From a virus: DNA of 18,348 nt. Location: IMG/VR virus record IMGVR_UViG_3300045988_138873. One strand, given 5' to 3'. Position numbers and translations under genes: made by a program. Below are positions 1 to 18,348 of the stretch, piece after piece (position 1 is the stretch's first letter; the number at the start of each line of letters is the position of its first letter). Under the pieces are notes generated by a model. That model saw nothing but the letters and a program-made list of their open reading frames with translations, had not been told where the DNA came from and did no database searches.

Positions 1-99
1 CCGCAACCGGCTTTCGCCGTCCAGAACTTTCGCTCTGGCGCAGACTATATCTTCATCCTCAAGAAATCTCTTCCGTCCGAAAATATTATGCATTTCGGA
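1..99. repeat. 99-bp exact terminal direct repeat, copy 1 (identical to 18250-18348)
   Basis: Read directly: nt 1-99 equal nt 18250-18348. The repeat sits exactly at both window ends and inside a ribozyme, so it is best explained as a k-mer-length assembly overlap of a circular path with unit length 18,249 bp. Confidence 0.95.
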
Positions 100-111
100 T
101 AATTCTCTATT

Positions 112-140
112 ATATTACCTTCTTTTTCCTTCTTCGTCAA
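112..140 (-). promoter_or_regulatory. Possible sigma70-type promoter inside the P8 extension of the ribozyme, facing tnpB
   Basis: Minus strand: TTGACG (140-135), 17-nt spacer, TAATAT (117-112). Sequence match only. Confidence 0.25.
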
Positions 141-439
141 GAGGTAATTTGAGATTTCTTGATGGGATGCCCACCACTTCGGACAGCCTATCGCTTGCCG
201 TCCTACTCCCTTCCGGGATAGTCGTTGAACCTTCCTCTCTTCGAGGCTTGGCTGCTGATTGCCCATTATTCTAGCGTTTAGGTTTTAACCTTGCGCTATG
301 CAACCGCTTCTTTCTACTTTCGTCGCCGTCACGCTTAGAGTTGTTCACTCTTACGTTGTGGCGCGGTTGCCTTTAGGGGTTCCCAGCACTTCAATGGGTT
401 TTATTTTTTCGAACATATTCCTATGAACGTGACCTGTAT

Positions 440-3097
440 TTACAAGTCTGAGGTAAAATCATCAAGCGACGTTTGGGTAGCCTTATAGGTGTAATTAGTT
501 CCGTCAAAACTGCCACTCGTTAGGTTGAGATCAATCGACTTGCCAGATACAGCGCCTGTCGCTCCACCGACTACGGCGTCCATACCTCTTTCTTCGCCGC
601 TGCCAATTCCAGCAAAAGCCTTTGCGGCTTCATGGCACTGTTTGGCGAACGATGCTACGCTCGACTTACCCGACGCCATGTTCTGATAAATGGACTGTGC
701 CGCGTTATAAGCAGCAGCGTTGAAATTCCCATTGACATCCGTACAAACTTCCATCGCCACACGGTCAAACTCTTCCGTGTTTTGAGCCATAGCAGCAGCC
801 GCAAGACGCCATGCATCTGCTTCTTGTACTCCGTTGTCAATGAGTGCTTGAGCCATTATGTTACCGGTATTGATACGATACTCAGCGACTTCCTTGGAAA
901 TTTGTCCCTCGCCTTCGCCAACATTTTGTGCAATTTCAAGTTCTGCCTGAGCAAACGCCATTTGGCCTTCAAGAGATGCTTTCTTAGCCTGAAGGTCTGC
1001 AATCTCCGCATCAATGGCCTCATTAACCTGTTCTTGTTTCCCGCTGATAAACGCATCAACGACGCCCTGATTCAACGTCACCTGACCATCAGCGGATACG
1101 GTTGCATTCGCAAGAATCTCAGGGTACGCCTCAGCAAACTCACGCGCCTTGTCGGCAGAAATTGTGAAGCTGTCCGCGACTGTATTCTGAATCGACGCGA
1201 TTTGCTCAAGTACACCAGAGCATGTGTCAAAAGTGCTTAGGATACCAGACCACGGACTCGGCATATTATTCAACAGCCGGTTATTCTCGGCAATCGCCGC
1301 ATTGTTCTTTGCGATTTCGGCTGTGTAGTTCGAAATCGCAAGAGTGCTGCGTTTATCATTGGCATTTTGCAGGTTATCAATATGCTTTTGAAGTTCATCA
1401 TTGGATGCCTCAAGCGCAGCAGTTTCTTCTCTAATAGCATCTGCCTCAGCTTTATTCGCAGCATCAACAGACGTAGACGATGCCTCGCTCATCACATCCT
1501 TGACGGTGGACATGGCAGCGCTGAAGGAGTCAGTCGCGTTCGTTGCATTTTGAGCCGCATCGGCATATTGCGGGAATGTCTGATTGGCCACTTCAGTCAG
1601 ATATTGCTTATACTGATCTGACACACCCGCCATGTTGTTGATAGACGCGATAAAGGAATCAAACGTCTCTTGAGAATTGACCGTCGCTTCCTTGAGCATA
1701 TCAGATATTTTAATGACAGCATCATTCTGCATCTGATTTGCAACCGCCGAATTATACTCATCAACGATACTTTGATAGAGATCAATTTTACTCTGGATAT
1801 CATTCAAGAGCTGAGAGTTCTCGTTCTCATCCGAGCTACGCCATTCATCCGAACTTAAAAGCGTATCTTGAATTTCTTTATAGATATCGACCATACCGGC
1901 CGCATCTTTGTTCATTGCCGCCCAGCTCACGTCAATCTTGTTGTTGACATCCAGTAGAGCGCTACCAGAATAACTCGCTTCTTTAAGTGCCTTGTTCAGA
2001 GCCTTGCTATTTGCAAGCTCGATATCCGCTCCCATAGAATACGGGTTGTCAATCGTTTTAGTGCCAGTACCCTCAGTAAGAGCACCTTGCTTGTACTTAT
2101 TTGTGGCACTTTCCACTTTCGTCTGAAGCGCGTTGGCGTTCTGTTTTGCTTGTTCAGCAGAGATGTTTTTGAGCTTGGAAACCTCGTCATCCAACTTGCC
2201 ATTCACAAGGTCAAGGTTGTTTGCCTGAGAGCCAACCAACTCTGTAATCTGGTCTTGGATGCTTCGGGCTTGCTCACGAGAAGATGCGTCAAAATCACCG
2301 GCAGAAGCAAGTTTGCTGTACTGCGCAATAAGGTCGTTCAATTGTTCGCGCTGATCGTTTGCGGCGCTAGCAACGTCATTGACCTTTTGCTCGTTTTCCT
2401 CAGCAGCCTGTTTTGCTTTTTCTTGAGCATTGCGAATCGCATTGATGCCAACAGAGGCAATCGTTGTGATGGCGGAAATGATTGCCACAGGACTGCTGAT
2501 GAAGTTCTTTGCAGCAGCCTTAACAGAAAGTGCCATATTGCCAGCCCATTCTTTAAGAGAGGCGGCGTGACTTCTTGTAGTGATTTCTGCGGCGCGTTGG
2601 CGAATTTCTTCCTCAGTTAACGCGCGCCCAAACTCAGATGTTCGAATAGCAGCCTCTATTTCAGCCTGAGTATATTTCTTCTTAGCATCCAAATTTAGCT
2701 TTGACGCTAACGTGTCCGCATCCGTATTAAGTTTTTGAGCGGCAAGAGCAATGCCTTCTTCGGTAATCGTCTGAGTTGCTTTTAGTCTTTGACTGACAGC
2801 AGCCTTTTCTTCATTAGTAAGTGCCGATTGCCCAAGCAAAACATCTCTTTGCTTTTCGGATAATCCCGCTAAAGCAGCCGTATATGCATTGATCTTGCCA
2901 TCGTCCAATTCTGGTTCCGACGCACTTGGAAATTGGACGATATTATCTTCGTTGCCTCCTAGAGTGTTTGCGCTTGCCGCCTGTTGCTTCTCATATTCGT
3001 TATTTAACGCTTCAATTTCTTGCTTTGCTTGTCGCAGAACTTTGAACGATGCCAAATCATACAAACATAATGCCGACCAAACATTATATTGATTCAA
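440..3097 (-). CDS. Tape-measure-like coiled-coil tail protein, 885 aa as written; proposed exon 1 (ends at 445) of an IStron-interrupted gene
   Basis: Long Ala/Gln/Glu-rich helical ORF with a hydrophobic segment (FISSPVAIISAITTIASVGINAI) and a Gly-rich C-terminus, as in phage tape-measure proteins. The start is uncertain: TTG at 3097 has no SD, and there is no in-frame ATG before codon 188. The TAA stop (442-440) lies 3 nt inside the predicted intron. Confidence 0.6.
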   Translation of the reverse strand: MNQYNVWSALCLYDLASFKVLRQAKQEIEALNNEYEKQQAASANTLGGNEDNIVQFPSASEPELDDGKINAYTAALAGLSEKQRDVLLGQSALTNEEKAAVSQRLKATQTITEEGIALAAQKLNTDADTLASKLNLDAKKKYTQAEIEAAIRTSEFGRALTEEEIRQRAAEITTRSHAASLKEWAGNMALSVKAAAKNFISSPVAIISAITTIASVGINAIRNAQEKAKQAAEENEQKVNDVASAANDQREQLNDLIAQYSKLASAGDFDASSREQARSIQDQITELVGSQANNLDLVNGKLDDEVSKLKNISAEQAKQNANALQTKVESATNKYKQGALTEGTGTKTIDNPYSMGADIELANSKALNKALKEASYSGSALLDVNNKIDVSWAAMNKDAAGMVDIYKEIQDTLLSSDEWRSSDENENSQLLNDIQSKIDLYQSIVDEYNSAVANQMQNDAVIKISDMLKEATVNSQETFDSFIASINNMAGVSDQYKQYLTEVANQTFPQYADAAQNATNATDSFSAAMSTVKDVMSEASSTSVDAANKAEADAIREETAALEASNDELQKHIDNLQNANDKRSTLAISNYTAEIAKNNAAIAENNRLLNNMPSPWSGILSTFDTCSGVLEQIASIQNTVADSFTISADKAREFAEAYPEILANATVSADGQVTLNQGVVDAFISGKQEQVNEAIDAEIADLQAKKASLEGQMAFAQAELEIAQNVGEGEGQISKEVAEYRINTGNIMAQALIDNGVQEADAWRLAAAAMAQNTEEFDRVAMEVCTDVNGNFNAAAYNAAQSIYQNMASGKSSVASFAKQCHEAAKAFAGIGSGEERGMDAVVGGATGAVSGKSIDLNLTSGSFDGTNYTYKATQTSLDDFTSDL

Positions 3098-3110
3098 ACT
3101 AATGTGCGAG

Positions 3111-3139
3111 TTGACATATACAAGAAAATATGGTAATCT
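3111..3139 (+). promoter_or_regulatory. Sigma70-type promoter for the plus-strand zinc-ribbon gene
   Basis: TTGACA (3111-3116), 17-nt spacer with a TGn extended -10, TAATCT (3134-3139). The RBS GAAGGTG precedes ATG 3168. Confidence 0.55.
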
Positions 3140-3167
3140 AAATAACTAAAATAAAGAAGGTGAATCG

Positions 3168-3866
3168 ATGGCATTCGAAGATACAATTCGCAATATGAAG
3201 AAACGGCTTCAGGGAAATGTCTGCCCAAATTGCGGCATTCCTTGGAAAAGTGCGCCAAGTTGTCCAAACTGCAAATATTCGCCGAAAATTGTTGCTTGCC
3301 CAAAATGTGCAACAATAAAAGCATGCATTTCAATCTCTGAAAAAAGAAAATTATTGACAAACCCAGAGGCGGTAGATTCGGCAGAAAGCTGTGAATGCAA
3401 CGTCTGTTATGCGGAATTAAATATGACGAACGAAGAATATGACAAAATAAAATGGGATAATCTCAAAGTAGAAACATGGTGGCCAGCGAAATGGAAAGCA
3501 TCTGCCTGTACATTATCAGACTTTGTTGCTGCACGGTATGCTTTTGAAAACTATTTTGACAAGTCGCAATTAGACACCAGCCTATCTAAATACAAGTCCA
3601 ACTACGCCAATATGTTCCCTGAATCGGAAGAAAGTATAGAGTATTTTAGAAGCGTTGGTGGCATTGAAAACTATTACTTTCCTCAGAACACAGATCATAC
3701 TACTTCTCGTCCCAAGCACGTTCCCAAATGCCCCATCTGCGGATCTGAAAATCTCACGCGACTGACCACGATGAAGAAGGCTGCAAAAATAGCGCTGGTT
3801 GGAATTTATGGACTTGGCGATTGTGGGAAGACGTGGAAATGCAATAATTGTGGCAGTAAGTTTTGA
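3168..3866 (+). CDS. Multi-zinc-ribbon protein, unknown function (only convincing plus-strand gene)
   Basis: 232-aa ORF with its own promoter, RBS and terminator. CxxC pairs: CPNCG...CPNCK...CPKC, CECNVC, and a C-terminal CPICGS...KCNNCG flanking the hydrophobic stretch AAKIALVGIYGLG. Confidence 0.7.
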   Translation: MAFEDTIRNMKKRLQGNVCPNCGIPWKSAPSCPNCKYSPKIVACPKCATIKACISISEKRKLLTNPEAVDSAESCECNVCYAELNMTNEEYDKIKWDNLKVETWWPAKWKASACTLSDFVAARYAFENYFDKSQLDTSLSKYKSNYANMFPESEESIEYFRSVGGIENYYFPQNTDHTTSRPKHVPKCPICGSENLTRLTTMKKAAKIALVGIYGLGDCGKTWKCNNCGSKF

Positions 3867-3874
3867 TATGACAA

Positions 3875-3906
3875 AGGCGAGGCCGTTTGGCCTCGCCTTT
3901 TGTTTG
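3875..3906. terminator. Intrinsic terminator between convergent genes
   Basis: AGGCGAGGCC-GTTT-GGCCTCGCCT followed by TTTGTTTG on the plus strand. On the minus strand the same stem is followed by TTTGTCAT. Confidence 0.8.
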
Positions 3907-3919
3907 TGTTTTCTAAATG

Positions 3920-4174
3920 TTAATCGGAACTTCCATAGGCTTTCATCTTCACGTTTTGAGCATTGCCTGACAGTCTATCGTAGTTTCTTTGGATATCTGC
4001 CAATGTCCTAGCAGATTCTGCTTGCCGTTCCCTAACAGCTCGGAGTTGTTCATCAGTGACGTCCATATTAACAAAAATCTTATACCCACTACGAGTTTGT
4101 CCGACCGGAGAAACGACTTTCACAGAACGACTTTTGTTGCTCCCATTAGGCATTGATCGTGTCCGTCTTTTCAT
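3920..4174 (-). CDS. Small basic protein (84 aa), unknown function, translationally coupled to the upstream TM-GAF-like gene
   Basis: Its ATG overlaps the upstream stop as ATGA (4171-4174). Lys/Arg-rich N-terminus followed by a helical C-terminus. Confidence 0.55.
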   Translation of the reverse strand: MKRRTRSMPNGSNKSRSVKVVSPVGQTRSGYKIFVNMDVTDEQLRAVRERQAESARTLADIQRNYDRLSGNAQNVKMKAYGSSD

Positions 4175-5145
4175 TGATACACCTCCTCTTTAATATATGC
4201 AATTTCGTATACAACACGCATCATTTTTCTATACGCTTCTGACAACTGTGAAAATTCTTTTTTAATTTTTTGTGGGGAGTCTATAACAGCATCATAATAA
4301 GCAATAATTTCGATCAACCCATTAGCGCCTGATTTATGATTGATAATCGGAATCGCCATATACTGATTATAAAAGAAATCTGCGTGCCGACAAGCCTCTT
4401 TGTCTAAATTTTCGATATACTCATTTTTATCTAACTCGTTCCACCCTGCCCAATAATAATTTATAAGCATATCTTCCCATGTGCTTAGGATATACTTCTT
4501 TTTGCTATCTCGCAGACAATAAGTGAAATAGTAGTCTTTAATAAGAGGGTCATCGATAAACACAGGCTTAAATAATCCGTATAGAAACAGAGGATTATCC
4601 ATTAACGTATCGACCATTTCATCTTGACTAGCAGCGACCATCTCTACAGTTCTATTGTTTTTATCATATTCATAAATGTACACGGCGAACCCGTTAGAAC
4701 CGGAACGGTGCTGGCAGCTTTTTACAATGCCGCTTGCGCACGCATTTGCCAGAGATTCAAAAGAGGCGTCTCCGTCTTTTACTTTCTTAAACATCGTAAT
4801 CGCTGTTGACACAAAAAAATCATATGCATCTTGTAGATGTTTTTCGGCTCCTTGCAACTCCGTCCTTGCCTCGTCGTATACAGATTGCCAAAACAAAAGA
4901 AAAATACCAACAAGAATAACAAGAACAGTAATGCCCCCTTCTACCCATGATTGAGCAGTATTATTGTTCAAGCTCAACAGCGAACACAACAAAGATAAAG
5001 TAACGGGAGCAACAAACATAAATGCAACAACAAGATTAGAGTACATTTTGAATTTATGTTCACATCGCGTGAGTCTCATCTCGGGTAGAATACTGGCATT
5101 CATTTTGTCAACAACTTTGCTAGCGCAGGCATCGACCAAAATCAT
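4171..5145 (-). CDS. Membrane-anchored protein with a GAF-like cytoplasmic domain (324 aa from ATG 5145)
   Basis: The RBS AAGGGGGA lies 6 nt before ATG 5145 (the track's start at 5178 lacks an RBS). Two hydrophobic helices (LVVAFMFVAPVTLSLLCSLLSL; ITVLVILVGIFLLFW). The C-terminal region has a GAF-like pattern (FAVYIYEYD...MAIPIINHKSGANGLIEIIAYYD...), judged by eye. Confidence 0.55.
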   Translation of the reverse strand: MILVDACASKVVDKMNASILPEMRLTRCEHKFKMYSNLVVAFMFVAPVTLSLLCSLLSLNNNTAQSWVEGGITVLVILVGIFLLFWQSVYDEARTELQGAEKHLQDAYDFFVSTAITMFKKVKDGDASFESLANACASGIVKSCQHRSGSNGFAVYIYEYDKNNRTVEMVAASQDEMVDTLMDNPLFLYGLFKPVFIDDPLIKDYYFTYCLRDSKKKYILSTWEDMLINYYWAGWNELDKNEYIENLDKEACRHADFFYNQYMAIPIINHKSGANGLIEIIAYYDAVIDSPQKIKKEFSQLSEAYRKMMRVVYEIAYIKEEVYQ

Positions 5146-5260
5146 CGCGGATCCCCCTTGTTTAAGTATTACAACCATAACCTACAACTTTTTTATAAAT
5201 TGTCAATACAAAAGTGGGATTTTTCGAGATTTTTGTTATTACATACCGTCTTGCGTATCC

Positions 5261-5290
5261 ATTATACCATTATTATGTTTGATTGGTCAA
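5261..5290 (-). promoter_or_regulatory. Sigma70-type promoter for the TM-GAF-like operon
   Basis: Minus strand: TTGACC (5290-5285), 18-nt spacer ending in TGG, TATAAT (5266-5261). Confidence 0.5.
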
Positions 5291-5307
5291 CCACTTCAAT
5301 TAACACA

Positions 5308-5334
5308 AAGCCCCTTGCTATAAGCAAGGGGCTT
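5308..5334 (-). terminator. Intrinsic terminator after the aspartic-protease operon
   Basis: Perfect 11-bp stem AAGCCCCTTGC / GCAAGGGGCTT with a 5-nt loop, followed on the minus strand by TGTGTTAATT. Confidence 0.7.
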
Positions 5335-5351
5335 AACACACTCTTGATAGA

Positions 5352-5867
5352 TTATTTCCCGCCTTTTCTACGCTTTGATTTGCCCTTTCCATGAGTAGCA
5401 CCAATGGCGTTGTCGATGTTTGCCTGCGGGACAAAGTCCATCTTTTCTTTGGATGGTATCCTGAATGTGAACACTGTTTTATTATTAAAATTGCTCACAG
5501 AGAAATCACCAAACGTAATGATATCCATGCCAATAAGCATATCAAGACCTTGTTTACCAATATCAGTGTCGCACACAGGGACATCGCTTACATTTAAGTG
5601 ATTAGGGAGTCCGACATTCACCAAATAAGTATTAACTGTCTTTGTACTTGATGGAGTGCGAATATCCATCATTCCAGTTGGGACAAGATTCAGCCGTTCC
5701 ACTACGGACTCAGAAATACAAGTCGTTGTTGCACCAGTGTCCCAGAGAGCAATACCATCAACTGAGCCATCAGCACTTGAAATAGTAATAGGAGTCATCA
5801 ACCGATTACTCTTTCCAGTATATTCAAGTGTAAATGCTCGATAGACAACAGACGGTGCTATTCCCAT
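5352..5867 (-). CDS. Retropepsin-like (clan AA) aspartic protease
   Basis: Active-site motif ALWDTGATTTCIS and flap/dimer motif LIGMDII. Basic tail GKGKSKRRKGGK. RBS GAAGTGAG. Confidence 0.7.
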   Translation of the reverse strand: MGIAPSVVYRAFTLEYTGKSNRLMTPITISSADGSVDGIALWDTGATTTCISESVVERLNLVPTGMMDIRTPSSTKTVNTYLVNVGLPNHLNVSDVPVCDTDIGKQGLDMLIGMDIITFGDFSVSNFNNKTVFTFRIPSKEKMDFVPQANIDNAIGATHGKGKSKRRKGGK

Positions 5868-5917
5868 ATTCTCACTTCTTCTCTATATCTCTAGATGAGG
5901 TTATTTTAATTGCGCAC

Positions 5918-6151
5918 TTACCCGAAACAAATTGACGAAATATAATTCGTATATGCCGATTCATCACCGTTACATTTTTGAATAATGAAAGTTCCAATCC
6001 TCTCTTTCTCAGAAGTCTTCCTAACACCTTCAGCATAAGAACGATATGATCCTAGCACTGTCTTCCCTTTTATTGCAAGGAAAGAATCTCCGTACTTTTT
6101 AAATAAGTCGGCATAATTATCCAAGAACCACTTATATTCATCCTTCAACAT
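5918..6151 (-). CDS. Small DUF5678-like protein (77 aa from ATG 6151)
   Basis: The RBS GAGGTG precedes ATG 6151 (the track start at 6217 has no RBS). The pattern YGDSFLAIKGKTVLGSY...IGTFIIQKC resembles the small proteins found beside archaeal and bacterial retropepsin-like proteases (from memory). Confidence 0.5.
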   Translation of the reverse strand: MLKDEYKWFLDNYADLFKKYGDSFLAIKGKTVLGSYRSYAEGVRKTSEKERIGTFIIQKCNGDESAYTNYISSICFG

Positions 6152-6200
6152 ATATGCCACCTCTAGAATAACATTTTGCACTTTCAATATTTTGACACGT

Positions 6201-6395
6201 CTAACGCACAAAGTCAAGACATTTCATATCTGTATTGCTGCGAATCGCGTTCTCTAATATAGATGCTATTTGGCATCCGCGTTTAGATGCACAGCCGATC
6301 TCAACCAACTTCTCAAATTCTGCCCATGCAGATTCATACCCGTCACAAACGCTTTTGTCAAACACGCTTGCATCATACGCATCGTTCAATACCAC
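6201..6395 (-). CDS. 64-codon ORF, either a hypothetical protein or the 3' exon of the tape-measure gene
   Basis: GTG start at 6395 directly after a TGA, with AAGGATAGGTG upstream. No recognisable motif. It is in frame with tape-measure exon 1 if the 3' splice site is G6396. Confidence 0.35.
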   Translation of the reverse strand: MVLNDAYDASVFDKSVCDGYESAWAEFEKLVEIGCASKRGCQIASILENAIRSNTDMKCLDFVR

Positions 6396-6874
6396 CAGTC
6401 ACACCTATCCTTTATTTAGATGAGCCACCTGCGGCAACAGATGGCTCATCAGGCATTCAGAGAAATGTTGTTCCCAGCAACGTCTCTCTGCCAATTTGTG
6501 AGCCGTCTGTTCCAGCAGACGGCTCGTGCGTTTGTGAAGCACTGCTTCAGAGGCTCACTATAGTATGTGTGTCACTATTTTGGTCGGCGGCGTGACCCGC
6601 CTGTAATTTTTGCGCTGTCGCGCTGATTTGGAATACCCCTTCACGACTCATTGAGCCGCGCAGCCATTATACTCTCTGAACGTTCTCATGCGAACATGAG
6701 CTTCGCTGCGGATTCCTTTCGGTTCCCGGAGTGGAATTACAAAACCACCCGCCTTTCGGCCAATTTCGGCTGTTTTGCCAATGCTCCCTCACTTGCAACT
6801 CACGCTGCAAGCTCGTTCCGTGTCACCACCAGAGCATATGTGGGCACATCATGAGAACCCGTCATTTTGGGTCT
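6396..6874 (-). ncRNA. Second, ORF-less group I intron in the 3' end of the tape-measure gene (3' boundary approximate)
   Basis: P1 GTGGGT(6880-6875)/GCCCAC(6845-6840) with a terminal U:G. P2 hairpin 6792-6811. P-like AAATTGGCCGAAAGGCGGG (6766-6748). Q AATCCGCAGC (6714-6705). P6 CTCATG-TTCG-CATGAG (6700-6685). R-like GTTCAGAGAGTATAATGG (6681-6664). S-like CATACTATAGTGAG (6567-6554). Long 3' hairpins at 6500-6525, 6452-6492 and 6421-6448. Confidence 0.6.
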
Positions 6875-9800
6875 ACCCACAGAACGAATAAATTGAACAC
6901 CAAGGACACCGGCAGATACCGTGCCAAGCGTTCCAAGGCTCTTCGTGATTGTCTGGATAACGCCAGACATATCCGTCAAGAGGTCAATTACATTCTTAAT
7001 CGTTCGCGTATCATAAAGATTCTGAGCGACACCAACCCAAGTTTCTTTCAGCGCATTCAACTTGAATACGATGGAGTCTTGGGCACGCTCCAACTCTTTT
7101 GACGCGCTGCCAGCAGAACCGGCCATAGCGTCCATAGCGTTCTCTGCCTGCTTAAAGTTTGAGATAAGTGCCGCACCGACCTGGGCGCGTTGCTTGCCGA
7201 ATAGCTTTTCGAGCAACTGCGCTTGATTTTTATCGCTGATTTCATTCCAGATATCTGCAATATCTTTCAGAATATCATAAGTAGAACGATAAGTGTTTGG
7301 ATCGTCGGCCTCAAACAAGCTGATTCCCTGATTATTATTGCTTGCTACTTTCGTCAAGTTAGCAATATCGCCTGTGATTTCCTTGAGGTCATCAGAATAT
7401 GTTTCAGTTTCCTCGTCGTAACCTCTCAGGCGCATAGAAATCGTCTTCAAGGCATTGCCGACCTGCGAAGAATCTCTCGTAATCTCCGTAGCCGCAGTAG
7501 CCAACGCGACAGTCTGCTCAAACGTGTTATTGGCCGCAGCCATTGCGGATGACGATCTAGTAAGTGAATCAACAATATCAGCATTCGATACAGCAAAATT
7601 GTTGCCGACTTCGTTTATCTTAGAAATAATTCCGTCAAGAGAATCGTTAACGTCCAACTCCTTGAACGCCTTCAGCATACTGACAAGACCATCAGTTGCC
7701 TCGGGCAAATCAAGATCTTCAGACACCGCAGAGAAAATAGCAGAGTTCCGTGACAACGTAGACGCCTCGTCAAGCGAGTACCCCAGACGTGCCCAGTCTG
7801 CTGTCTGCTGAATGATGTCCTTTGTAGACGCACCGAGTTCCTTAGCAGTCTGGTTCGCCGTATAATAGAAACTGCGATACTGCTCTTCCGTCGCATCAGT
7901 CGTTTTCTTCAGGTCAATAAGCGCATTATCGAGGTCTTTAACAACATCGAATCCCTCTCTGAGCGTTTGCCACGTCTTAAAGATAATAGTTGTTGCGCCA
8001 ATCCACTGAGAAACCTTAGCGAGGTTGTTCTTGAAAACATCACCAAGTGATAGTGTATCTTTACCAGCAGCTTTAACCTCAGCGCGGAATGCGCTTAACT
8101 GTGCTTTCCACTTTGAGAAATCGGCTTGGCTGTTTACACGGCCAAGACTGACTTTCAACTGGTTGAGTTGCGCGTTAAGACCGGGGTCGTTTTTAAGCGC
8201 GCTCCACTTTGTTTCAATCGTGATTAGGTCTTGCTTCGCTTTGGCAAGCCCAGACTCAAAACGAGAATCGGCAACATCAAGCCTCGACAATTTTTCGAAA
8301 TGCATTACCTCGGACGTGCAATCCTCTAAAATTTGACGGAGCTTTTCATAAGCGGCTATTTTGCCTTGGTCATCTAGCTTGCCACCGTTAACTGCTTTAA
8401 GTTGCCTGTCCAATTCTGCGATATTTCCAGCGAGTTCTTTTGACGGATTCCCAAGAGCAGAAAACCGTGCCTGAAGTTCCGCAACCTTTTGCGGCATAGA
8501 TGCCATCTCTTTATTGATAGACGCAACAGCATCTTTTACGCGGCCTTCTGCAACAGCAAGCTCATAGTTTTGCTGAATAGCTCTCTCGTCGTGTTGCGAA
8601 CGTGCCTTGGCGGCAGCAACCACTTCAGGCATGAGATGAGATTGGATTCTGATCTCTTGCGTGATTTTCGATTGCTCGGCCTCAACACGAGCCAGCTCAG
8701 CCGCCATGGTCTGATACTCTTCAGTCCCCTGACTCGTGCTGAACATTTTCTTTCTTATTTGTGTGGCTCTGCCACGAGCAGAAAGCAAGGAATTATATTT
8801 CTGAACGACACCTTCAACCTGAGCATCAAAGCTCTTGACCTCAGCACTCAAAGTGCTAAATTGATTAAGATATTTTGTCAGTGCCGCGCCGTCTGAAGCG
8901 CCGCTCAACTCGTTATGAAGTTTATCAATTCGAGCTGCAAAGTCTTGCGTAAGATTTCCTACATTTGAAAGTTTCGTTCTATAGGCATCTAACTTAGACA
9001 ATTCCTCATCACGAATAGTCACGACGTCTTTCGTGCGCAACTTTGTCGGAGCGCGCTCTAGCGTGCGGTATGCCTCACCAAGCGCTTTTGCATTTGCAAT
9101 GAGTTCAACAATCTCTCTTTGCTGATCTCCACTTAGCGCACCATTTTCCGCTTTAAGTGCAGCGATTTTATTGTTGATTTCTGTGACTTTCTCTCCGAAC
9201 GATTCAAGCCTAGACTGGTCAACAATCGGCTTCTGTGAACTCTCTCCGGTATAAGACGCATTGATTTTATTGATTTCGATTTGCTGTTTTGATAGAAAAT
9301 TCAAGCGAGACTGGTTGTCTTTTTCAGTTTGTCGTGCCAACGCAGCCGCAGACTTGCGCTGTCGCTCCAAATCTAGCGTAATATTTGTTGTTGTTGTGCT
9401 AATTTCCTTTGTCTGCTCGTCATATGTCTGAAAATACGAAACTACTTTGCCCGCTTGATCTTTACCTTGGATTGTGAGATTTAATAGATTTCTAGCTCCA
9501 TCTACGGACTTCTCCCATTTGCCACTCACTCTGTCGATACGAATACCCATCTGGTCAATCTGCTCGACCATGCTATTCGTAATAGACGGATCAACATGCA
9601 AATTATTTAGTTCCGCTTGTAATTTAGTGATGGAATTTTGATCTAAACCTAGTTGAACGCCGACTTTATTGGCGGCGACCTTTTGATTGATTTTTTGTAC
9701 AAACGCACCTGCTTGCGCGCTAACTGCGCTATCATCAAGCGCGATTCCGACTTTAATTTTACTCGACTGATTTACCTTGTCGGAGATGCTTGGCAGTTGT

Positions 9801-9877
9801 GCCGCTATTCGTCTTGATGACGCTTCTTCATCTGCCTCAAGCACACTTGTTACAACAACTTCCAATTCATCGCTCAT
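6875..9877 (-). CDS. Phage tail tape-measure protein (TP901-type core domain), exon 1; the track ORF runs on to 6800 by reading into the intron
   Basis: RBS GGTGGTG 5 nt before ATG 9877. Roughly 600 aa of coiled coil, then ...ADWARLGYSLDEASTLSRNSAIFSAVSEDL...VGNNFAVSNADIVDSLTRSSSAMAAANNTFEQTVALATAATEITRDSSQVGNALKTISMRLRG, typical of the tape-measure core domain, then the Gly-rich hydrophobic segment LGTLGTVSAGVLGV. Confidence 0.85.
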
Positions 9878-9892
9878 TAAATCACCACCTTA

Positions 9893-10438
9893 TTAGAAAA
9901 ATAAATCGTCTAGATTTTCATCAGAGTTGCCAGTTATTCTCGACTTGACACCTTGACGCTTTAGACCATTTTGCAGAGCCAAAACATGAGAGCCAACGTA
10001 TCGAAGATGACGAATCGTCGCCTCAGTAAACGGCCTTGGGTTCATATATGCGCCTTTAGACTGAAAATTATATTTATAGCCCCAACGGTTGTTATTGCCA
10101 TACTCAATTAGTTCCGGCAGACTTTTACCAACCGTAACCCGATCTCGATTAAGCACACCTCCCGGATTGGGATCAGCTATATTGATAACGCGCAACACAC
10201 CATTCGTGGCCTTTCCGCCTTTCATTATGATGTTTCCCTTATCAGCAAGACCACCCATGTCGCCACGTCGCTCGTACATGAGAGGTCTATATGTATCGTA
10301 GACCTTTTCATCGATGGAGAATGCTTCTACATCTACGACAACCTGATATACCTCTCTGGAAAGCGCGGAGTCAATTTTAGGTTTTAATTGCTTATTTGCA
10401 TAAGCAAGCGCATCTTTGATATTCGTAGCACCCACCAC
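9893..10438 (-). CDS. Putative phage structural/assembly protein (181 aa)
   Basis: Immediately upstream of the tape measure, with the stop 13 nt before the tape-measure RBS. No confident family. GTG start embedded in AAGGTGGTG, so the exact start is uncertain. Confidence 0.45.
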   Translation of the reverse strand: MVGATNIKDALAYANKQLKPKIDSALSREVYQVVVDVEAFSIDEKVYDTYRPLMYERRGDMGGLADKGNIIMKGGKATNGVLRVINIADPNPGGVLNRDRVTVGKSLPELIEYGNNNRWGYKYNFQSKGAYMNPRPFTEATIRHLRYVGSHVLALQNGLKRQGVKSRITGNSDENLDDLFF

Positions 10439-10454
10439 CTTATGTTAAAAATGT

Positions 10455-10476
10455 GGGAGCGCCTTATGGCGCTCCC
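10455..10476 (-). terminator. Terminator-like hairpin in the GC-rich spacer
   Basis: GGGAGCGCC-N4-GGCGCTCCC, followed on the minus strand by ACATTTTTAAC. Confidence 0.5.
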
Positions 10477-10568
10477 GTTGCAAGGCTGCACTTGTATGCC
10501 GCACGCAGTCGGGCGGCAATCGTAAGCAAGTCGCACTCTTATTGGCCGCTGGCGACAGGCGGCAGTTG

Positions 10569-11216
10569 TTATTCAGATTCCTCCGCTTTGTACAGACGAA
10601 GCATTGCGTCCGCCACACCTTCAGCATCAACACCATGTGTTAGCTCAGACAGTTTGCCAGCATACGCAAGCAGTTCTTCTGTGTCCACGCTATCCACTTT
10701 GTCAACAAGGGACTCAACAAAACGACGTGCACCACTAACAATGGCAGACAAGTCGCCAGTCACGCCGTTATTGGCCAGATTACGTGCACGACGATATTCC
10801 GCAGCATTGTCACAAAGGCCATACAGATACCAAATGAAGCCGCAAAAATCATCCGTTGATTCGTCACTCTCAAGCGAAAGCGCATCATACAGCTCGTCCA
10901 TCGCGTCGATGTCAAGTAATTTTTCGCCATCATCACCAGCAGCTCCGCGAATCGGAATCGGCGGCACGTTAGTCATCATCTGAAGCACGGTTGCGTGGAA
11001 CATCGGGTCGAAATACTCAGGCCGGAAATTGCCACTGTCATCAAAGCATCCGGCAAGAACGCGACTGATAAAAGCCGACTGCTCCGCGCATGACAGGCTC
11101 GTGCGCACTTCAACATCAAACTCCGCACCATCAAATTCGTAGTGTACTTTGACATACTTCGGAACTTCTTTTGTTTTCATATATTTCTTCATAGTATCTA
11201 CAGAAAGTTTCTTCAT
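10569..11216 (-). CDS. Acidic 215-aa protein, possible tail assembly chaperone (assigned by position and composition)
   Basis: Strongly acidic C-terminal half, located two genes upstream of the tape measure. No motif-level evidence. Confidence 0.3.
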   Translation of the reverse strand: MKKLSVDTMKKYMKTKEVPKYVKVHYEFDGAEFDVEVRTSLSCAEQSAFISRVLAGCFDDSGNFRPEYFDPMFHATVLQMMTNVPPIPIRGAAGDDGEKLLDIDAMDELYDALSLESDESTDDFCGFIWYLYGLCDNAAEYRRARNLANNGVTGDLSAIVSGARRFVESLVDKVDSVDTEELLAYAGKLSELTHGVDAEGVADAMLRLYKAEESE

Positions 11217-11250
11217 ATATTAAAATTACCTCAACAATAGTTAGTTTTTT

Positions 11251-11976: not shown

Positions 11977-11983
11977 ATCTACC

Positions 11984-12616
11984 TCAAATTAGGTCGATGT
12001 CTTCAATGATTTCATCCGCGACGTTGTAGCGAATCATCTCATCCGAGAACAAGAACCAATCACGACGATAATTACTGTCGTACAGATCGCCCGGAATACT
12101 CGTGTGCGTAATGATATAATCTCGAATACGCTTCTCAAGCCCTTTCGTGAACTCAAGGTTGTCCAACATCTTGCCTGTCGTACCGTAAATGCCAGACGAA
12201 CCATCGTGAATCAGGCAACTCGTATTCTTGAAAATGTACCGCGTATCACCTGCCATCAGGAGCAGACCACCGGCACTATACGCCTTGCCAAGCGCAATCG
12301 TAATAACGGGCGTCTTAGACAGCTCAATCATGTCAACAACGTTCATGATGGTATTGAGATCGCCGCCATCTGAGTTAATGAAAATCTTAATGGGCTTGCG
12401 TTCATCAACCGACTTGCCTTTGTCCTCGATGTTCCACTTGCGAATACACATCGACACATCAATCATACTTTCGTCAACATCGTCATTCCAAAGAATTTCA
12501 CGGTCTTTGAGGCGACGATAATATTCAAGCAGTCCGGGGTCTGGGAGCTGTTCTCAGAGAATGTTCTCTACATCGTCAAGACCCAACAGGTCAATGAAAT
12601 CGGCGGATTTTTTCAT
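11984..12616 (-). CDS. clpP: ClpP-family serine protease with an in-frame TGA at codon 21 (12556-12554)
   Basis: Triad contexts GKAYSAGG (Ser), CLIHDG (His), RRDWF (Asp), plus INSDGGD. The conserved fold extends upstream of the track's ATG (12466) through LLEYYRRLKDREILWNDDVDE. ATG 12616 has an AAGGAG RBS and overlaps the ruvC stop as ATGA. Confidence 0.75.
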
Positions 12617-16672: not shown

Positions 16673-16941
16673 TCAATGATAGGCAGGTGTTTTCTGACGG
16701 TGCAGAAGTGACTCGACACGAGAAATCTGATCGTCCAATTCCTGTTTGGTCACACGCTTTGTCGCATCCTGTCCAGTAAGCGTAACATCCTTGCCGTAGA
16801 TACCATTGAGCGCCATGACTCGGCTGAGTTCGCGCTGAAGATACGAGACATACATCATCTGGGCGAGCGTTCTCACGACCAGCTTATCGACATTACCGGA
16901 AAACTCGCCAGTGTCAGGGTCGTCCGTTGTGTTACGTTGAA
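16673..16941 (-). CDS. Start-less 89-codon ORF, the proposed 3' exon of the IStron-interrupted tail gene
   Basis: The frame is open from 16960 down to TGA 16675-16673. There is no SD before GTG 16876 or ATG 16858. It begins right after the predicted right end (...CTGTTAG|TTCAACG). Confidence 0.55.
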
Positions 16942-17110
16942 CTAACAGTAACTTACTGCTTCACAGCGTCCCCGTTCGTCGTGACTACTTGGGTTTGTTT
17001 GACGCTCCACAGCTTGAAGGCGCAACGACGCCTTGAGGTTGTAGCCCCTCTGCATTTTAGGCTACATACCTGCTTAGATTGATAGCGGCATTGTAGTCGC
17101 GGTCTATCTC
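16942..17110 (-). ncRNA. Putative TnpB omega RNA (reRNA) scaffold / IS200-IS605-type right end; 5' limit approximate
   Basis: A 115-nt non-coding tail plus the 3' end of tnpB. Hairpins GTAGCC/GGCTAC (17041-17065, spanning the stop codon), AAGGCG/CGCCTT (17017-17034) and AGCGTC/GACGCT (16965-17006), and the palindrome CAGTAAGTTACTG (16946-16958). This is the location where TnpB guide RNAs are known to be encoded. Confidence 0.5.
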
Positions 17111-18196
17111 CGCGCCACATTCTGCACACACGTATACTCTATCCCTGAGCCTCAAGTCGCGCTTGATCGCACCACAGCAAGAACAAGTCTTGCTACTCGG
17201 ATAGAATCTGCCCACTTGAACAAACTCAATTCTATTCCATTCGCACTTATACTGCATCTGTCTAATGAACTCACCAAAACACTGCTCCTGAATCGCCTTG
17301 CTGAGATGACGGTTCTTCATCATCCCTGTCACATTCAGGTCTTCCATCACCACTCTTTTCGGGAGCAGTGACACAAGATCATGTGTCGTTTGGTGGATGT
17401 AATTCGTGCGAATGTTGGTCATTCGTGCATACATCTTTTTGAGACGTTCTTCACTTCGCATTATGTTGTTCGTCTTAACAAACGTATTCCCACGACGATT
17501 TTGCTCATACTTTCTGGAAATACTGCGCTCCAAATGACGTCTTTGTTTTTCAAGACGCTTCATCTTTGACGTTTTGTTGATATTGCGATATGTTATTTTC
17601 GTCCCGTTAAATTCCGCTACCGCTAAGTCTTTTACTCCCAAATCTATACCCATTGAAATATCCGTCAGCACAGGCGCTTGGCTCTCGCACTCCATGCCGA
17701 AAGACAATATCCATTTGCCATTTACATTTGAAATCCTCGGATTCGTAAACTTGTGCCCACGCCCTTGCGGCAGGTCAAAATCTGTTTTATATTTGATTTT
17801 ACCCACTTTTTCGATATGCATAAGTTTGCTGTTAATAAAATATATCCTATCGTCCTTGACCGGATACGTCTTTTTGCTACGCTTGCGACTCTTAAATTTC
17901 GGAAAGCGCGCAATCTTCTTGAAGAAACCTTTATACGCTTTATCAAGATCACGGCAAACAACGCCTAAAGACGCATTTGACACTTCGCATAACCACTCGT
18001 GCTCTCCGTCTTTCTTCAACGGCGTCAGCAGCTTTATCATATCGAATGCGGACAGATGCTTCTCGCCATTCACGTATTGCTCCTGCTGATACGCAAGCAT
18101 GTAGTTCCAAATGTATCGGCAAGCTCCTATGTGTTTCCACATTAGAGCCTCTTGCTCTTTCGTCGGGTATAGTCTTATTTTATAAGACTTAATCAT
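17057..18196 (-). CDS. tnpB: TnpB, RNA-guided nuclease of an IS200/IS605-family element (no tnpA partner)
   Basis: N-terminus MIKSYKIRLYPTKEQ. RuvC-I GIDLGVKD, RuvC-II VVMEDLN, zinc finger CSCCG...CAECG, RuvC-III DRDYNAAINL. The RBS AAGGGAGGTG lies 5 nt before ATG 18196. Confidence 0.92.
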   Translation of the reverse strand: MIKSYKIRLYPTKEQEALMWKHIGACRYIWNYMLAYQQEQYVNGEKHLSAFDMIKLLTPLKKDGEHEWLCEVSNASLGVVCRDLDKAYKGFFKKIARFPKFKSRKRSKKTYPVKDDRIYFINSKLMHIEKVGKIKYKTDFDLPQGRGHKFTNPRISNVNGKWILSFGMECESQAPVLTDISMGIDLGVKDLAVAEFNGTKITYRNINKTSKMKRLEKQRRHLERSISRKYEQNRRGNTFVKTNNIMRSEERLKKMYARMTNIRTNYIHQTTHDLVSLLPKRVVMEDLNVTGMMKNRHLSKAIQEQCFGEFIRQMQYKCEWNRIEFVQVGRFYPSSKTCSCCGAIKRDLRLRDRVYVCAECGAEIDRDYNAAINLSRYVA

Positions 18197-18249
18197 CGTT
18201 GCACCTCCCTTCGTTAGTTATAAGGGAGATTCCTTATCGGTTCGCTACA
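18197..18249 (-). ncRNA. Distal (P9-like) part of the same ribozyme plus the tnpB leader
   Basis: Contiguous with nt 1-99 through the circular junction. Contains the hairpin ATAAGG-N6-CCTTAT (18220-18237), followed by the RBS AAGGGAGGTG of tnpB. Confidence 0.55.
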
Positions 18250-18348
18250 CCGCAACCGGCTTTCGCCGTCCAGAACTTTCGCTCTGGCGCAGACTATATC
18301 TTCATCCTCAAGAAATCTCTTCCGTCCGAAAATATTATGCATTTCGGA
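18250..18348. repeat. 99-bp exact terminal direct repeat, copy 2
   Basis: Identical to nt 1-99. Confidence 0.95.

Follow-up and report, generated by a model that had tools for sequence, protein, structure and literature searches.

The locus analysed here raises the question of whether the 885-aa open reading frame (ORF) on its minus strand is a complete gene and, if not, what interrupts it. We use "the window" for the whole stretch of DNA that was analysed, which is 18,348 nt long. Our analysis indicates that window positions 444 to 1 are very probably the ribozyme half of an IStron, copy A, that interrupts a tape-measure-like tail gene of an SPbeta-like phage. The features of this end of the window are as follows; carets mark junctions throughout.

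1..444, minus strand: first 444 nt of the probable IStron copy A, with the whole group I core from P1 to P9.1 (RF00028, folds, continuation in scaffold L006)
431..448, minus strand: P1 helix (covariance-model alignment, fold, exon junction colinear with vacant alleles)
399-393/178-170 and 388-383/258-253, minus strand: core helices P3 and P4
223-218/48-43, 203-181, 38-21, and 19-8, minus strand: core helices P7, P7.2, P9, and P9.1
45..266, minus strand: 73-aa ORF, not a gene, inside the core from the P5 3′/P4 3′ strand to the P7 3′ strand
440..442, minus strand: TAA terminating the 885-aa ORF, within the intron (P1 loop); no stop at this point in uninterrupted homologues
445..3097, minus strand: exon 1 of a giant coiled-coil, tape-measure-like tail gene (ORF list, phrog_4211, relatives that read through)

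Group I ribozyme core

A preliminary description of this DNA had proposed an IA-type group I ribozyme at this position. The proposal held up in a search with the Rfam covariance model RF00028, which gave 72.1 bits (E 6.9e-17; gathering cutoff 50 bits) for window positions 454..21 (minus strand), a match that covers the full model (positions 1-253 of 253). The group I elements listed in that description were all present on the minus strand. As read from the sequence, P (GAAGTGCTGGGAACC) lies at 392-378, Q (AATCAGCAGCC) at 260-250, R (GTTCAACGACTA) at 230-219, and S (AAGATATAGTC) at 53-43. They are accompanied by the hairpins P6 (CCTC-GAAGA-GAGG, 246-234), P7.1 (CCC-GGAA-GGG, 217-208), P9 (CCAGAGC-GAAA-GTTCTGG, 38-21), and GGC-GAAA-GCC (18-9, within P9.1, 19-8), by P7.2 (GGACGGC...GCUGUCC, 203-181), and by a long P8 (169-54). 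P3, P4, P6, and P8 were paired in the covariance-model alignment, and direct reading gave P7 as GACUAU (223-218) with AUAGUC (48-43). Folded separately, P1 reached −7.8 kcal/mol (z −3.6) and the branched P8 was recovered with a z of −5.8; P7.1, P7.2, and P9/P9.1 were recovered as well. This set of P/Q/R/S elements and hairpins exceeds chance by far, and the core scores on a par with its relatives (70-85 bits). The ribozyme is classed as IA2-type group I, a subgroup assigned by the presence of P7.1 and P7.2 between the P7 5′ and P3 3′ strands; the two are found as in td and Twort, and the earlier IA-type assignment stands.

The ribozyme copies are too alike for covariation to add anything. A P10 pairing was set aside as evidence, as it amounts to 2 bp (UG/CA) in copy A and is not convincing elsewhere. 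A low-threshold Rfam scan of the whole window returned nothing else credible, and no ribozyme in the interval between the 1025-aa and 885-aa ORFs. BLAST against GenBank phages matched only the ribozyme core and distant TnpB genes; the host phage was not among the matches. The 73-aa ORF inside the core had been suspected of not being a gene, and we agree. It has no Pfam match, and its frame is lost in other copies, by interruption after 9 codons in L019 and 19 in L020, both diverged, and by a frameshift in L008 and L009; it is therefore not conserved as a gene.

The 5′ splice site and the interrupted tail gene

P1 is formed on the minus strand by GACTTGT (448-442) and ACAGGTC (437-431). Its 5′ strand consists of exon GACU (448-445) and intron UGU (444-442), and ACAGGUC (437-431) is the internal guide. 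The 5′ splice site had been placed between 445 and 444, with a U:G wobble at T445:G434, and this placement is supported from two sides that agree: the covariance-model alignment gives the wobble as U445:G434, and the ligated exons are colinear with intron-less alleles without an indel, which supports the position independently. The site had also been taken to fall in the last codon of the gene. That part proved wrong, because the TAA at 442-440 is intronic and relatives read straight through. A boundary of the GG-core type (IS607 TnpA) at ...AGG^TCACG within P1 was rejected, since the vacant site in L001 lacks the entire segment from the 5′ splice site on.

On comparison with its relatives, the 885-aa ORF is exon 1 only of a gene of ~1,680-1,690 aa, with ~800 more codons beyond the intron. 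It is counted from TTG 3097, and gene callers start it at ATG 3064 (874 aa); the final base of exon 1, U445, is base one of a TTG codon. Exon 1 matches phrog_4211 (tape measure) weakly (E 1.7e-7), and an exact look-up of the 885-aa protein found it not on record. The relatives P0002 and P0012 read through, and intron-less alleles are present in L009, L012, and L078-L081, the latter being four metagenome contigs, two of them of 122-141 kb. The ligated sequence at junction A, CCTCAGACT^TGCAGCTTGAT, corresponds to CCTCAAACT TGCAACTTGAT in these alleles, in an open frame, and yields ...DFTSD-L-QLDISKY.... The more distant P0002 is colinear in protein (DFISQIELDVSKYQ versus DFTSDLQLDISKYQ). Across relatives, this one tail gene has at least three insertion sites.

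Two element copies in a linear window

The window is the reverse complement of positions 1530-19877 of the phage scaffold L006, which is SPbeta-like and 56 kb long; the alignment covers all 18,348 nt without gaps, at 99.891% identity. The TnpB, guide RNA, and 3′ splice site of copy A lie outside the window and were taken from this scaffold, which is 99.9% identical and comes from another sample. The whole of copy A there measures 1,764 nt (L006:19434-21197), contains its own 377-aa TnpB and a RAGATH-18 motif, terminates in ...ACGG at L006:21197, and is followed by an 808-aa ORF. The tail frame resumes 1,764 nt past the 5′ splice site; gene callers start the 808-aa ORF at GTG 21197, which no Shine-Dalgarno sequence precedes. 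The intron is thus more than a ribozyme by itself: it is an IStron that carries TnpB and a RAGATH-18 guide RNA.

The other end of the window holds a second copy, B, 16.5 kb from copy A, with the following features.

16924..18348, minus strand: last 1,425 nt of IStron copy B (ribozyme 3′ part, tnpB, guide-RNA scaffold, right end)
17057..18196, minus strand: tnpB of copy B, 379 aa (Pfam, NCBIfam, PDB 8IAZ)
16953..17013, minus strand: RAGATH-18 motif, core of the TnpB guide-RNA (omegaRNA/reRNA) scaffold (RF03064)
16924..16952, minus strand: copy B right end, a GUUAC...GUAAC hairpin and then ACAACGG (A/B divergence point, same end in at least nine independent insertions)
16673..16923, minus strand: exon 2 of a ~130-aa gene (P0001 match, L001 intron-less allele)
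1..99, no strand assigned: 99-nt stretch identical to 18250-18348, with P8 3′, P7 3′, P9, and P9.1 common to copies A and B

Copy B as a whole is 1,789 nt long (L006 1166-2954). In L005 and L006, which come from two different assemblies, it is preceded by a YonB-like gene, a 155-aa gene, and the 47-codon exon 1 that the window lacks. Window 406-16953 has an identical counterpart in L007, an independent contig of 16.5 kb that ends inside both elements, and the interrupted arrangement was found again at 99.9-100% identity in three independent assemblies. A cut-off RF00028 match lies at 18348..18270. As each end of the window falls in mid-element, one in B and the other in A, its terminal repeat is a false one, and we read the 99-nt repeat as an assembly repeat boundary and not as a genome terminus or circle junction. 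The permuted intron of the preliminary description (16900-18249 plus 1-460) turns out to be a chimera of two insertions, and the window a linear piece of a larger genome. Related contigs measure 122-141 kb; we take the host phage to be SPbeta-like, with a genome of about 120-140 kb.

The sequences of copies A and B agree fully as far as ...CACAACGG and diverge beyond it. The last base of the copy B intron is G16924, with the 3′ splice site between 16924 and 16923. Residues 48-129 of P0001 match 16921..16676 at 98% identity, and the stop codon follows at 16675-16673. At junction B, the intron-less allele in L001 reads CTTGGCT^ACAACCCC and the occupied one CTTGGCT^...CGG^ACGACCCT, and the ligations of copies A and B both restore frames colinear with intron-less alleles. 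On the assumption of a true circle, other 3′ splice sites past RAGATH-18 were tried for one that would carry on the 885-aa frame, namely after G16942, after 16954 (a UAG stop would result), and, on the pattern of UCGG/GG ends, after G16896 or G16908. They were dropped because the frame after 16923 belongs to the ~130-aa gene and the A/B comparison fixes the end at ...ACGG.

TnpB and guide RNA

The tnpB gene of copy B, with the upstream RBS GGGAGGTG, matches Pfam PF12323, PF01385, and PF07282 and scores 302.7 bits with NCBIfam guided_TnpB (cutoff 100). Its best solved relative is the IS607 TnpB of ISFba1 (PDB 8IAZ, E 2e-71), with whose RuvC residues D185, E285, and D367 of copy B align. TnpB is full length in both copies, with the RuvC residues aligned. 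The cutoffs of NCBIfam IS607_TnpB (162 versus 350) and IS200_TnpB (266 versus 425) were both missed. Two pointers to IS607 are the RAGATH-18 association and ISFba1 as best PDB match.

TnpA is absent from both copies, and only ~73 nt without an ORF separate P9.1 from the tnpB ATG; transposition in the strict sense is therefore not encoded. According to the literature, IStrons without TnpA are common. In a scan of bacterial genomes for TnpB, the closest match was 68% identical, on a Clostridia MAG contig of 103 kb, and no autonomous TnpA-bearing copy of the lineage was identified, as judged from the TnpB matches alone.

The RF03064 match (57 bits, cutoff 44.9, E 3.9e-9) lies 29 nt from the right end; the role of RAGATH-18 as a TnpB guide-RNA motif has been described (PMC11061315). 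The first ~20 nt of exon 2, 16923-16904 (ACGACCCTGACACTGGCGAG), are presumed to be the guide segment of the copy B omegaRNA.

Insertion sites and vacant alleles

The combination of this core, TnpB, RAGATH-18, and the right end ACACA(A/G)CGG recurs at different sites in at least 10 viral contigs. The same element was found at six or more sites in viral contigs, nearly always after YGGCU, with the 5′ flanks ATGGCT, GCGGCT, GTGGCT, TTGGCT, and AGACT and U as last exon base. Its right end is ...ACACAACGG in eight of nine distinct insertions and ...ACACAGCGG in L008; a requirement for CGG at the right end has been published (PMC13521648). What all insertion sites have in common is exactly the 4 nt (GRCU) that pair with the internal guide GGUC, which is invariant. 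RAGATH-18 and the right end are kept across copies whose TnpBs are only 60-68% identical to the window's. Vacant and occupied alleles differ precisely in the motif and the guide-proximal bases. The exact vacant junction with occupied-type flanks (G at −4 and +5) had no match in viral contigs, and a degenerate vacant-junction pattern gave four metagenome matches, all with A at both −4 and +5.

Alternative explanations

Established at the level of sequence are the ribozyme with TnpB and the guide-RNA motif, the two splice junctions, and the linear two-copy arrangement. With RF00028 fully matched within 454..21, the insertion could be pictured as a compact group I intron without an ORF, ~445 nt long and ending near position 1, with the tail gene resuming at once. 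This is hardly credible, since P9.1 leads into tnpB in L006, where the tail frame is back only after 1,764 nt, no exon-like sequence follows P9.1, and the same layout recurs at 10 or more other loci. A true circular genome of 18.2 kb, in which one intron ran from 445 across the junction and through the 379-aa ORF to ~16924, would account for the exact 99-nt terminal repeat and for a junction-spanning sequence that resembles a plausible complete element. We regard it as very improbable. The window is colinear with the linear 56-kb scaffold and ends in two elements 16.5 kb apart, and joining 445 to 16923 would mix phase 1 with phase 2 (GAC U^AC GAC), out of frame, and fuse two unrelated genes. 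Moreover, neither the remainder of the tail gene nor the first 47 codons (5′ part) of the ~130-aa gene are present in the window, its 18 kb hold no terminase, portal, or major capsid gene, and related contigs are far longer.

The stop codon 3 nt past the splice site, together with the gene-called start at GTG 21197 in L006, could also mean that copy A is a decayed, non-splicing remnant, with the 885-aa protein final and the downstream ORF translated separately. This is improbable given that the core scores equal those of relatives, that P1 is kept along with the phase and the terminal G, that the exons align with uninterrupted alleles in exact colinearity, that the GTG has no Shine-Dalgarno sequence, and that the arrangement is repeated in three independent assemblies. 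Some weight attaches to the idea that the element splices while its TnpB and guide RNA are inert, spread being due to ordinary recombination or to reverse splicing at GRCU sites. TnpA is absent, and the 4 nt common to the insertion sites are those that pair with the internal guide, as reverse splicing would select. We nevertheless consider it unlikely: both TnpBs are full length with aligned RuvC residues, RAGATH-18 and the right end are conserved despite the divergence of the TnpBs, and vacant and occupied alleles differ just at the motif and guide-proximal bases.

Proposed mechanism and implications

As an IStron in the tail gene, the element is ordered as an IA2-type group I intron (5′), tnpB for an RNA-guided nuclease, and a RAGATH-18-type omegaRNA (3′), with DNA ends that match its splice sites. 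In the tail-gene transcript, exon ...GACU would form P1 with the guide GGUC, guanosine would attack after U445, and the freed exon would attack after the terminal G of ...ACACAACGG, ~1.3 kb past the window end. The product, ...GAC U^UG CAG CUU..., would encode the uninterrupted protein of ~1,680-1,690 aa. Unspliced RNA would stop at the intronic TAA and double as tnpB mRNA and guide-RNA precursor. Splicing and guide maturation would be mutually exclusive. On the model of the Clostridium botulinum IStron, TnpB and its guide, the latter made up of the scaffold and ~16-20 nt from the start of exon 2, would cleave alleles that lack the intron but have the YGGCT/GACT motif adjoining a matching target, and the element would be copied into the cut allele by recombination. 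We infer catalysis, TnpB activity, the TAM, and homing, and for splicing we draw on the sequence and on the persistence of the interrupted gene.

We further offer, as a tentative possibility to which we give less than even weight, a joint reading in which these elements form a TnpA-less phage IStron lineage that combines canonical splice-rule reversion, RNA-guided homing, and escape-variant vacant alleles. In such a lineage, YGGCU would be the P1 5′ strand and perhaps also the TnpB TAM, and TnpB with its guide may act as the homing nuclease by which the element spreads between co-infecting SPbeta-like gut phages. A protein homing endonuclease may be the counterpart of TnpB on the sister ribozyme of Enterocloster phages, and surviving vacant alleles may be mutants in the motif or guide-proximal bases.

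In annotation terms, unrecognised introns account for three artefacts, namely the 885-aa "gene", the 73-aa ORF, and a 61/67-aa ORF after RAGATH-18, the real products being the ~1,680-1,690-aa tail protein and the ~130-aa protein. What looks like a "circular, complete" 18-kb genome is a fragment of a ~120-140 kb phage; direct repeats from multi-copy mobile introns can mimic terminal redundancy, which should be borne in mind when virome completeness is called. Two diverged IStron copies share one phage genome here, and occupied as well as vacant alleles are at hand; this natural system suits direct tests of how splicing competes with guide-RNA maturation and of RNA-guided homing in phage co-infection.

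Relation to known elements

IStrons are already known, including in phages, and the element described here adds another to that kind; their mechanism and CGG end have been published (bioRxiv 10.1101/2023.11.20.567912, PMC13521648, PMC4227781). It resembles the group B (IS607-type) IStrons BcISt1 of Bacillus cereus, CbISt3/CbISt4 of the C. botulinum phages c-st and D-1873, and CboIStron (Zedaveinyte et al.) in its 5′ IA2 core, its 3′ tnpB and guide RNA, splice sites that are the element ends, a right end of CGG, the lack of target duplication, and the often missing TnpA. Phage residence is on record for that group as well, and the c-st intron core is 73% identical to the window's. However, published group B IStrons insert after GG-ending sites and splice after G, whereas here the sites are YGGCU/GACU, the last exon base is the canonical U, and the U:G wobble lies within P1. 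The present element also differs in having no long AU-rich inverted-repeat stem and just 29 nt of scaffold past RAGATH-18.

ISFba1 (PDB 8IAZ; PMC11061315) likewise has RF03064 immediately 3′ of a ~380-aa TnpB with alignable RuvC residues, but it was not described as part of an intron, it uses AGGAG or GAGGG as TAM, and its scaffold runs ~50 nt past RAGATH-18 (PMC11061315). The T4 td and Twort introns, whose likeness is drawn from the literature and not from sequence comparison, share the P7.1/P7.2 core, the GNRA-capped P9, and residence in essential phage genes; they carry a protein homing endonuclease or no ORF, in contrast to TnpB and guide RNA here. The intron of the Enterocloster phages CB457P1/P2 and CB473P1-3 (OP172753-7) is 79% identical in nucleotides over the P3-P7 core, and is annotated with an I-TevI-like "intron-associated endonuclease" instead of TnpB and guide RNA. 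The Enterocloster phage intron and the window's element thus pair the same ribozyme chassis with different mobility genes.

The ribozyme core

The group I ribozyme in the preliminary description is confirmed and its 5′ splice site is correct, with three corrections to the setting: the 885-aa ORF is an exon of the tail gene, the apparent circularity is artefactual, and the intron proves to be an IStron, that is, a group I ribozyme, tnpB, and a RAGATH-18 guide RNA (omegaRNA) in a single spliceable mobile element. All of the claimed motifs were found where they had been placed, on the minus strand of 1-454. The suggested covariance-model search, with RF00028, gave a match to 454..21 that spanned all 253 positions of the model (72.1 bits, cutoff 50, E 6.9e-17). 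P7 is not paired in this model because it is pseudoknotted, and it was instead read directly from the sequence.

Helices of the ribozyme (window positions; paired in the RF00028 alignment unless noted)
445 and 434, minus: splice-site wobble U445:G434 in P1, formed by GACU-UGU with ACAGGUC
399-393 / 178-170, minus: P3
388-383 (UGCUGG) / 258-253 (UCAGCA), minus: P4
minus: P6 and P8
223-218 (GACUAU) / 48-43 (AUAGUC), minus: P7, read directly from the sequence
38-21, minus: P9, GAAA-capped

Folded in isolation, P1 gave -7.8 kcal/mol (z -3.6), P8 formed a long branched helix (z -5.8), and P9 and P9.1 formed a three-way junction. The isolated segment 3′ of the P7 5′ strand folded into hairpins P7.1 and P7.2, which are marks of subgroup IA introns; the label "td-like" thus holds at the level of the subgroup and at no closer one. 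The 73-aa ORF at 45-266 had been suspected not to be a gene. This view stands: a Pfam search returned no family match for it, and the frame is disrupted in diverged copies, being shortened to 9 and 19 codons in two (L019 and L020) and frameshifted in two others (L008 and L009).

The window spans two element copies on a linear phage genome

The first and last 99 nt of the window (1-99 and 18250-18348) are identical, and the preliminary description had read the intron across this junction. On the minus strand, such a reading runs into a 379-aa ORF (18196..17057) that encodes the full set of three TnpB domains, followed by a RAGATH-18 RNA at 17013..16953 (57 bits). The result resembles one complete element, but the neighbouring genes mismatch. 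Two uninterrupted relatives of the tail gene product, P0002 and P0012, run beyond ...LDDFTSDL* into ...DFISQIELDVSKYQDAISQIDGQ... for at least 180 further residues, and this continuation is missing from the window. The frame after RAGATH-18 instead encodes the C-terminal 82 residues of a different protein of ~130 aa (P0001, 98% identity), the first 47 residues of which are absent from the window. The splice from 445 to 16923 that belongs to the circular reading was rejected, as it joins phase 1 to phase 2 and fuses unrelated genes.

Exact look-up of the window's TnpB and 1025-aa protein led to 56-kb contigs from two independent assemblies (L005 and L006). All 18,348 nt of the window aligned without gaps to L006:19877-1530 at 99.891% identity, and L006 carries two RF00028 matches and two RAGATH-18 matches.

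Element copies in L006
L006:1166-2954 (its last 1,425 nt at window 18348..16924, minus): copy B, within the ~130-aa gene
L006:19434-21197 (its first 444 nt at window 444..1, minus): copy A, after the 885-aa ORF, with its own 377-aa TnpB, then an 808-aa ORF

One end of the window therefore lies partway into copy B and the other partway into copy A, and the flanking genes together with the gapless linear mapping contradict an intron that crosses the ends. The shared 99-mer is the P8 3′, P7 3′, P9, and P9.1 stretch common to both ribozymes. Window 406-16953 is matched without a difference by a third assembly (L007), which breaks off in each of the two elements. Judging by its name (k99_...), L005 may come from a de Bruijn assembly with k = 99, and the 99-nt overlap would then be accounted for; the exact repeat between the copies in L006 is longer (6 + 99 + 67 nt). 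The contig is thus linear, an 18.2-kb fragment from a phage of ~120-140 kb with SPbeta-type structural genes (Pfam families YonB, YomX, YomW, YomU, and YomN), and relatives of this phage occupy contigs of 122-141 kb. To call the genome complete or circular from the 99-nt repeat would be wrong, and direct terminal repeats are in general an unsafe basis for completeness calls.

Splice junctions

Over ~1,760 nt, the two copies share 93.8% identity (ribozyme 97.7%, tnpB part 91.7%). They match through ...GUUCAACGUAACACAACGG at the 3′ end and differ immediately afterwards, which fixes the right end there. Colinearity with intron-less alleles supports the 5′ splice site at 445|444.

Junctions of the two copies
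Window 445/444, minus: copy A 5′ junction, CCTCAGACT/TGTAAATACAGGTC
L006:21197/21198: copy A 3′ junction, ...ACAACGG/TGCAGCTTGATATTTC
Window 16924/16923 (3′ cut), minus: copy B occupied site, CTTGGCT/TAGATG...CACAACGG/ACGACCCTGAC
L001 (intron-less allele): copy B vacant site, CTTGGCT ACAACCCCGAC

Joining the exons of copy A gives GAC T/TG CAG CTT GAT, translated as ...DFTSD-L-QLDISKYQQQ.... Intron-less alleles (L009, L012, and metagenome contigs L078-L081) read ...TTTACCTCAAACT TGCAACTTGATATTTC... in an open frame with zero indels, and P0002 (59% identical) is colinear at site A, residue for residue. In both copies the final base of the exon is a U paired with G in P1, and the final base of the intron is G. 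The TAA at 442-440, previously taken as the end of the tail gene, is located in the P1 loop, and splicing would excise it. The ligated RNA at site A is expected to read ...CCUCAGACU-UGCAGCUUGAU..., with an intron of ~1.76 kb carrying an added 5′ G; the ligated-exon 40-mers would be GATGATTTTACCTCAGACTTGCAGCTTGATATTTCAAAAT at site A and TGACCTTGGCTACGACCCTGACACTGGCGAG at site B. The spliced protein would read across the junction as ...DFTSDLQLDISK..., and the predicted complete tail product is ~874-885 + 807 residues. This result corrects the annotation of the tail gene and of the window.

TnpB, guide RNA, and insertion target

The TnpB of copy B is full length (379 aa) and passes the NCBIfam guided_TnpB model (302.7 vs 100). 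Its best solved relative is the RAGATH-18-guided TnpB of ISFba1 (8IAZ, E 2e-71), to whose RuvC positions D185, E285, and D367 align; the third of these is Ala in the deposited 8IAZ chain, presumably because of an inactivating mutation. No TnpA is encoded in either element copy.

Guide RNA of copy B
17056-16924, minus: guide-RNA scaffold
16952-16931, minus: terminal hairpin
Predicted guide segment: ACGACCCTGACACTGGCGAG

A TnpB-based scan of viral contigs returned 20 loci. Half of these have RF00028 upstream of TnpB, and nine of these 10 also have RAGATH-18 downstream; the sequence of the tenth, L015, stops within tnpB. At five loci that are more distant or truncated, RAGATH-18 is present and the available sequence contains no intron. 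The right ends, that of copy B included, read ...ACACAACGG, or ACACAGCGG in L008, with unrelated sequence beyond each.

5′ flanks of the insertion sites
Site A: CAGACT
Site B: TTGGCT
Site C: GTGGCT (L009, L010, L011, and L014)
Site D: GCGGCT (L012)
L008 site: ATGGCT
L020 site: ATGGCT

All six distinct sites adjoin the invariant internal guide AGGUC, and their flanks define an insertion motif YGGCU (GACU at site A), and this motif is itself the partner of GGUC in P1. A single giant tail gene contains sites C, A, and D. The window has a vacant site C at 851/850 on the minus strand (ATAATGGCT/CAAGCACTC, also read as ATAATGGCT/CAAGCACTCATTGAC), exactly where a sister IStron sits in the four site C loci. 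Since it retains the GGCT motif and at least the first 15 nt of guide-matching sequence (a longer match was read by eye), its sequence predicts that it would be cleavable by the TnpB of the sister copy. L006 carries no insertion at site D (21956).

Occupied and vacant alleles differ mainly at the insertion sites (window 16897-16923; flanks of L006:1165 and 19433). Site B compared with L001 shows 12 mismatches from -74 to +26 and zero in the following 234 nt, with three of the 12 at guide positions +3, +8, and +12. Vacant site A alleles (four metagenome contigs and two distinct viral-contig alleles) have A at -4 (AACT vs GACT) and A at +5 without exception; among the viral contigs and metagenome matches, no vacant site A with occupied-type flanks was found. 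Site D differs by nine mismatches in 60 nt, the motif included (CGGGT). Such clustering agrees either with co-conversion during homing or with escape from TnpB cleavage.

The P1 loop of copy B (L006:1166-1200; also in L008, L013, and L015) contains an extra 7-8-bp hairpin, GUAACACACGAUACGUGUUGC, that is missing from copy A. Its 5′ strand, GUAACACA, recurs at the right end (GUAACACAACGG), which gives the 3′ strand two possible partners, an arrangement that may correspond to the 5′ DR/3′ DR feature reported in group B IStrons. We also note that one locus, L013 (IMGVR_UViG_3300029219_000019), has the 5′ flank of copy B (CCTTGGCT/) but an unrelated 3′ flank (CGG/TCCAGTCTAATGG), so either IStron copies have been rearranged with each other or the assembly is chimeric at the repeat.

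Two proposed transcript fates

The Clostridium botulinum IStron has been dissected experimentally (bioRxiv 10.1101/2023.11.20.567912; PMC13521648), and by homology with it the primary transcript here probably has two fates. In one, the ribozyme would fold and splice, restoring the tail-gene mRNA. In the other, the transcript would stay unspliced: tail-gene translation would end at the intronic TAA, tnpB would be translated from its own RBS, and the 3′ ~130 nt (RAGATH-18, terminal hairpin, and ACAACGG) with the first ~16-20 nt of exon 2 would become the guide RNA. Splicing cuts the scaffold from the guide, and the fates would therefore be mutually exclusive. Guided TnpB would cut intron-less alleles bearing the motif beside matching sequence, and the element would be copied into the cut allele as it recombines with an occupied genome. 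We infer catalysis, TAM, cleavage, and homing; the phage offers a natural two-copy system for testing RNA-guided intron homing.

Comparison with known IStrons

IStrons have been known since 2000. A 2014 catalogue of IS607-type ("group B") IStrons lists copies in C. botulinum phages c-st and D-1873 (PMC4227781), whose intron cores are 73% identical to the present core. Like those elements, the present one begins with an IA2 core and carries tnpB and the guide RNA in its 3′ part; its ends are also the splice sites, the right one finishing in CGG. Target duplication is absent from both, and frequent loss of TnpA is likewise common to them. Published group B IStrons insert after GG-ending sites and splice after G, whereas here the exon ends in a canonical U inside a fully paired P1; this is a known element type with a mildly unusual target rule. 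The scaffold extends 29 nt beyond RAGATH-18, compared to ~50 nt in ISFba1. At the protein level, the TnpB fell short of both family models and is assigned to neither, scoring 162 bits against IS607_TnpB (NCBIfam cutoff 350) and 266 against IS200_TnpB, the IS200/IS605 model (cutoff 425).

Enterocloster phages carry a sister ribozyme, 79% identical, with an I-TevI-like endonuclease instead of TnpB and guide RNA. In one of them (CB457P1, OP172753.1:8340-9529) the I-TevI-like intron endonuclease is annotated and the intron itself is not. The different mobility gene on the sister ribozyme agrees with the mobility-gene swapping reported on closely related introns (bioRxiv 10.1101/2023.11.20.567912).

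Host genes and neighbours

The 1025-aa ORF (PF10145; TIGR01760) encodes the canonical tape measure. The gene interrupted by copy A encodes another protein, giant and coiled-coil, that weakly matches a tape-measure PHROG, and PF10145 is present in one of its relatives; "tail gene" is a reasonable but not proven name. Copy B (16924-18348, minus) interrupts the ~130-aa gene upstream of a YomX_N-like gene, and the 67-aa ORF at 16673-16876 is the end of that gene's exon 2. Homologues of tail-gene exon 2 (L006:21200-23077; P0121-P0194) were annotated as pieces of ~370-1,090 aa in 74 of 74 cases, none exceeding 1,500 aa, which fits frequent intron interruption, or contig breaks at introns, in many assemblies.

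Several ORFs lie between the tape measure and the interrupted gene (3097-6800), a region in which an Rfam scan detected no RNA family. A 171-aa ORF (5352-5867) has retropepsin-like aspartyl protease matches (PF13975, E 8e-7), a 232-aa ORF on the opposite strand (3168-3866) has weak zinc-ribbon matches, and those of 335, 99, and 84 aa had zero matches. The ClpP-like head-maturation protease (11984-12466, minus) is 160 aa here and in L005 and L006, vs 210 aa in the intron-less L001; the DNA alignment is gapless at 98.3% identity, so the difference reflects a point change in a start or upstream stop and not an insertion.
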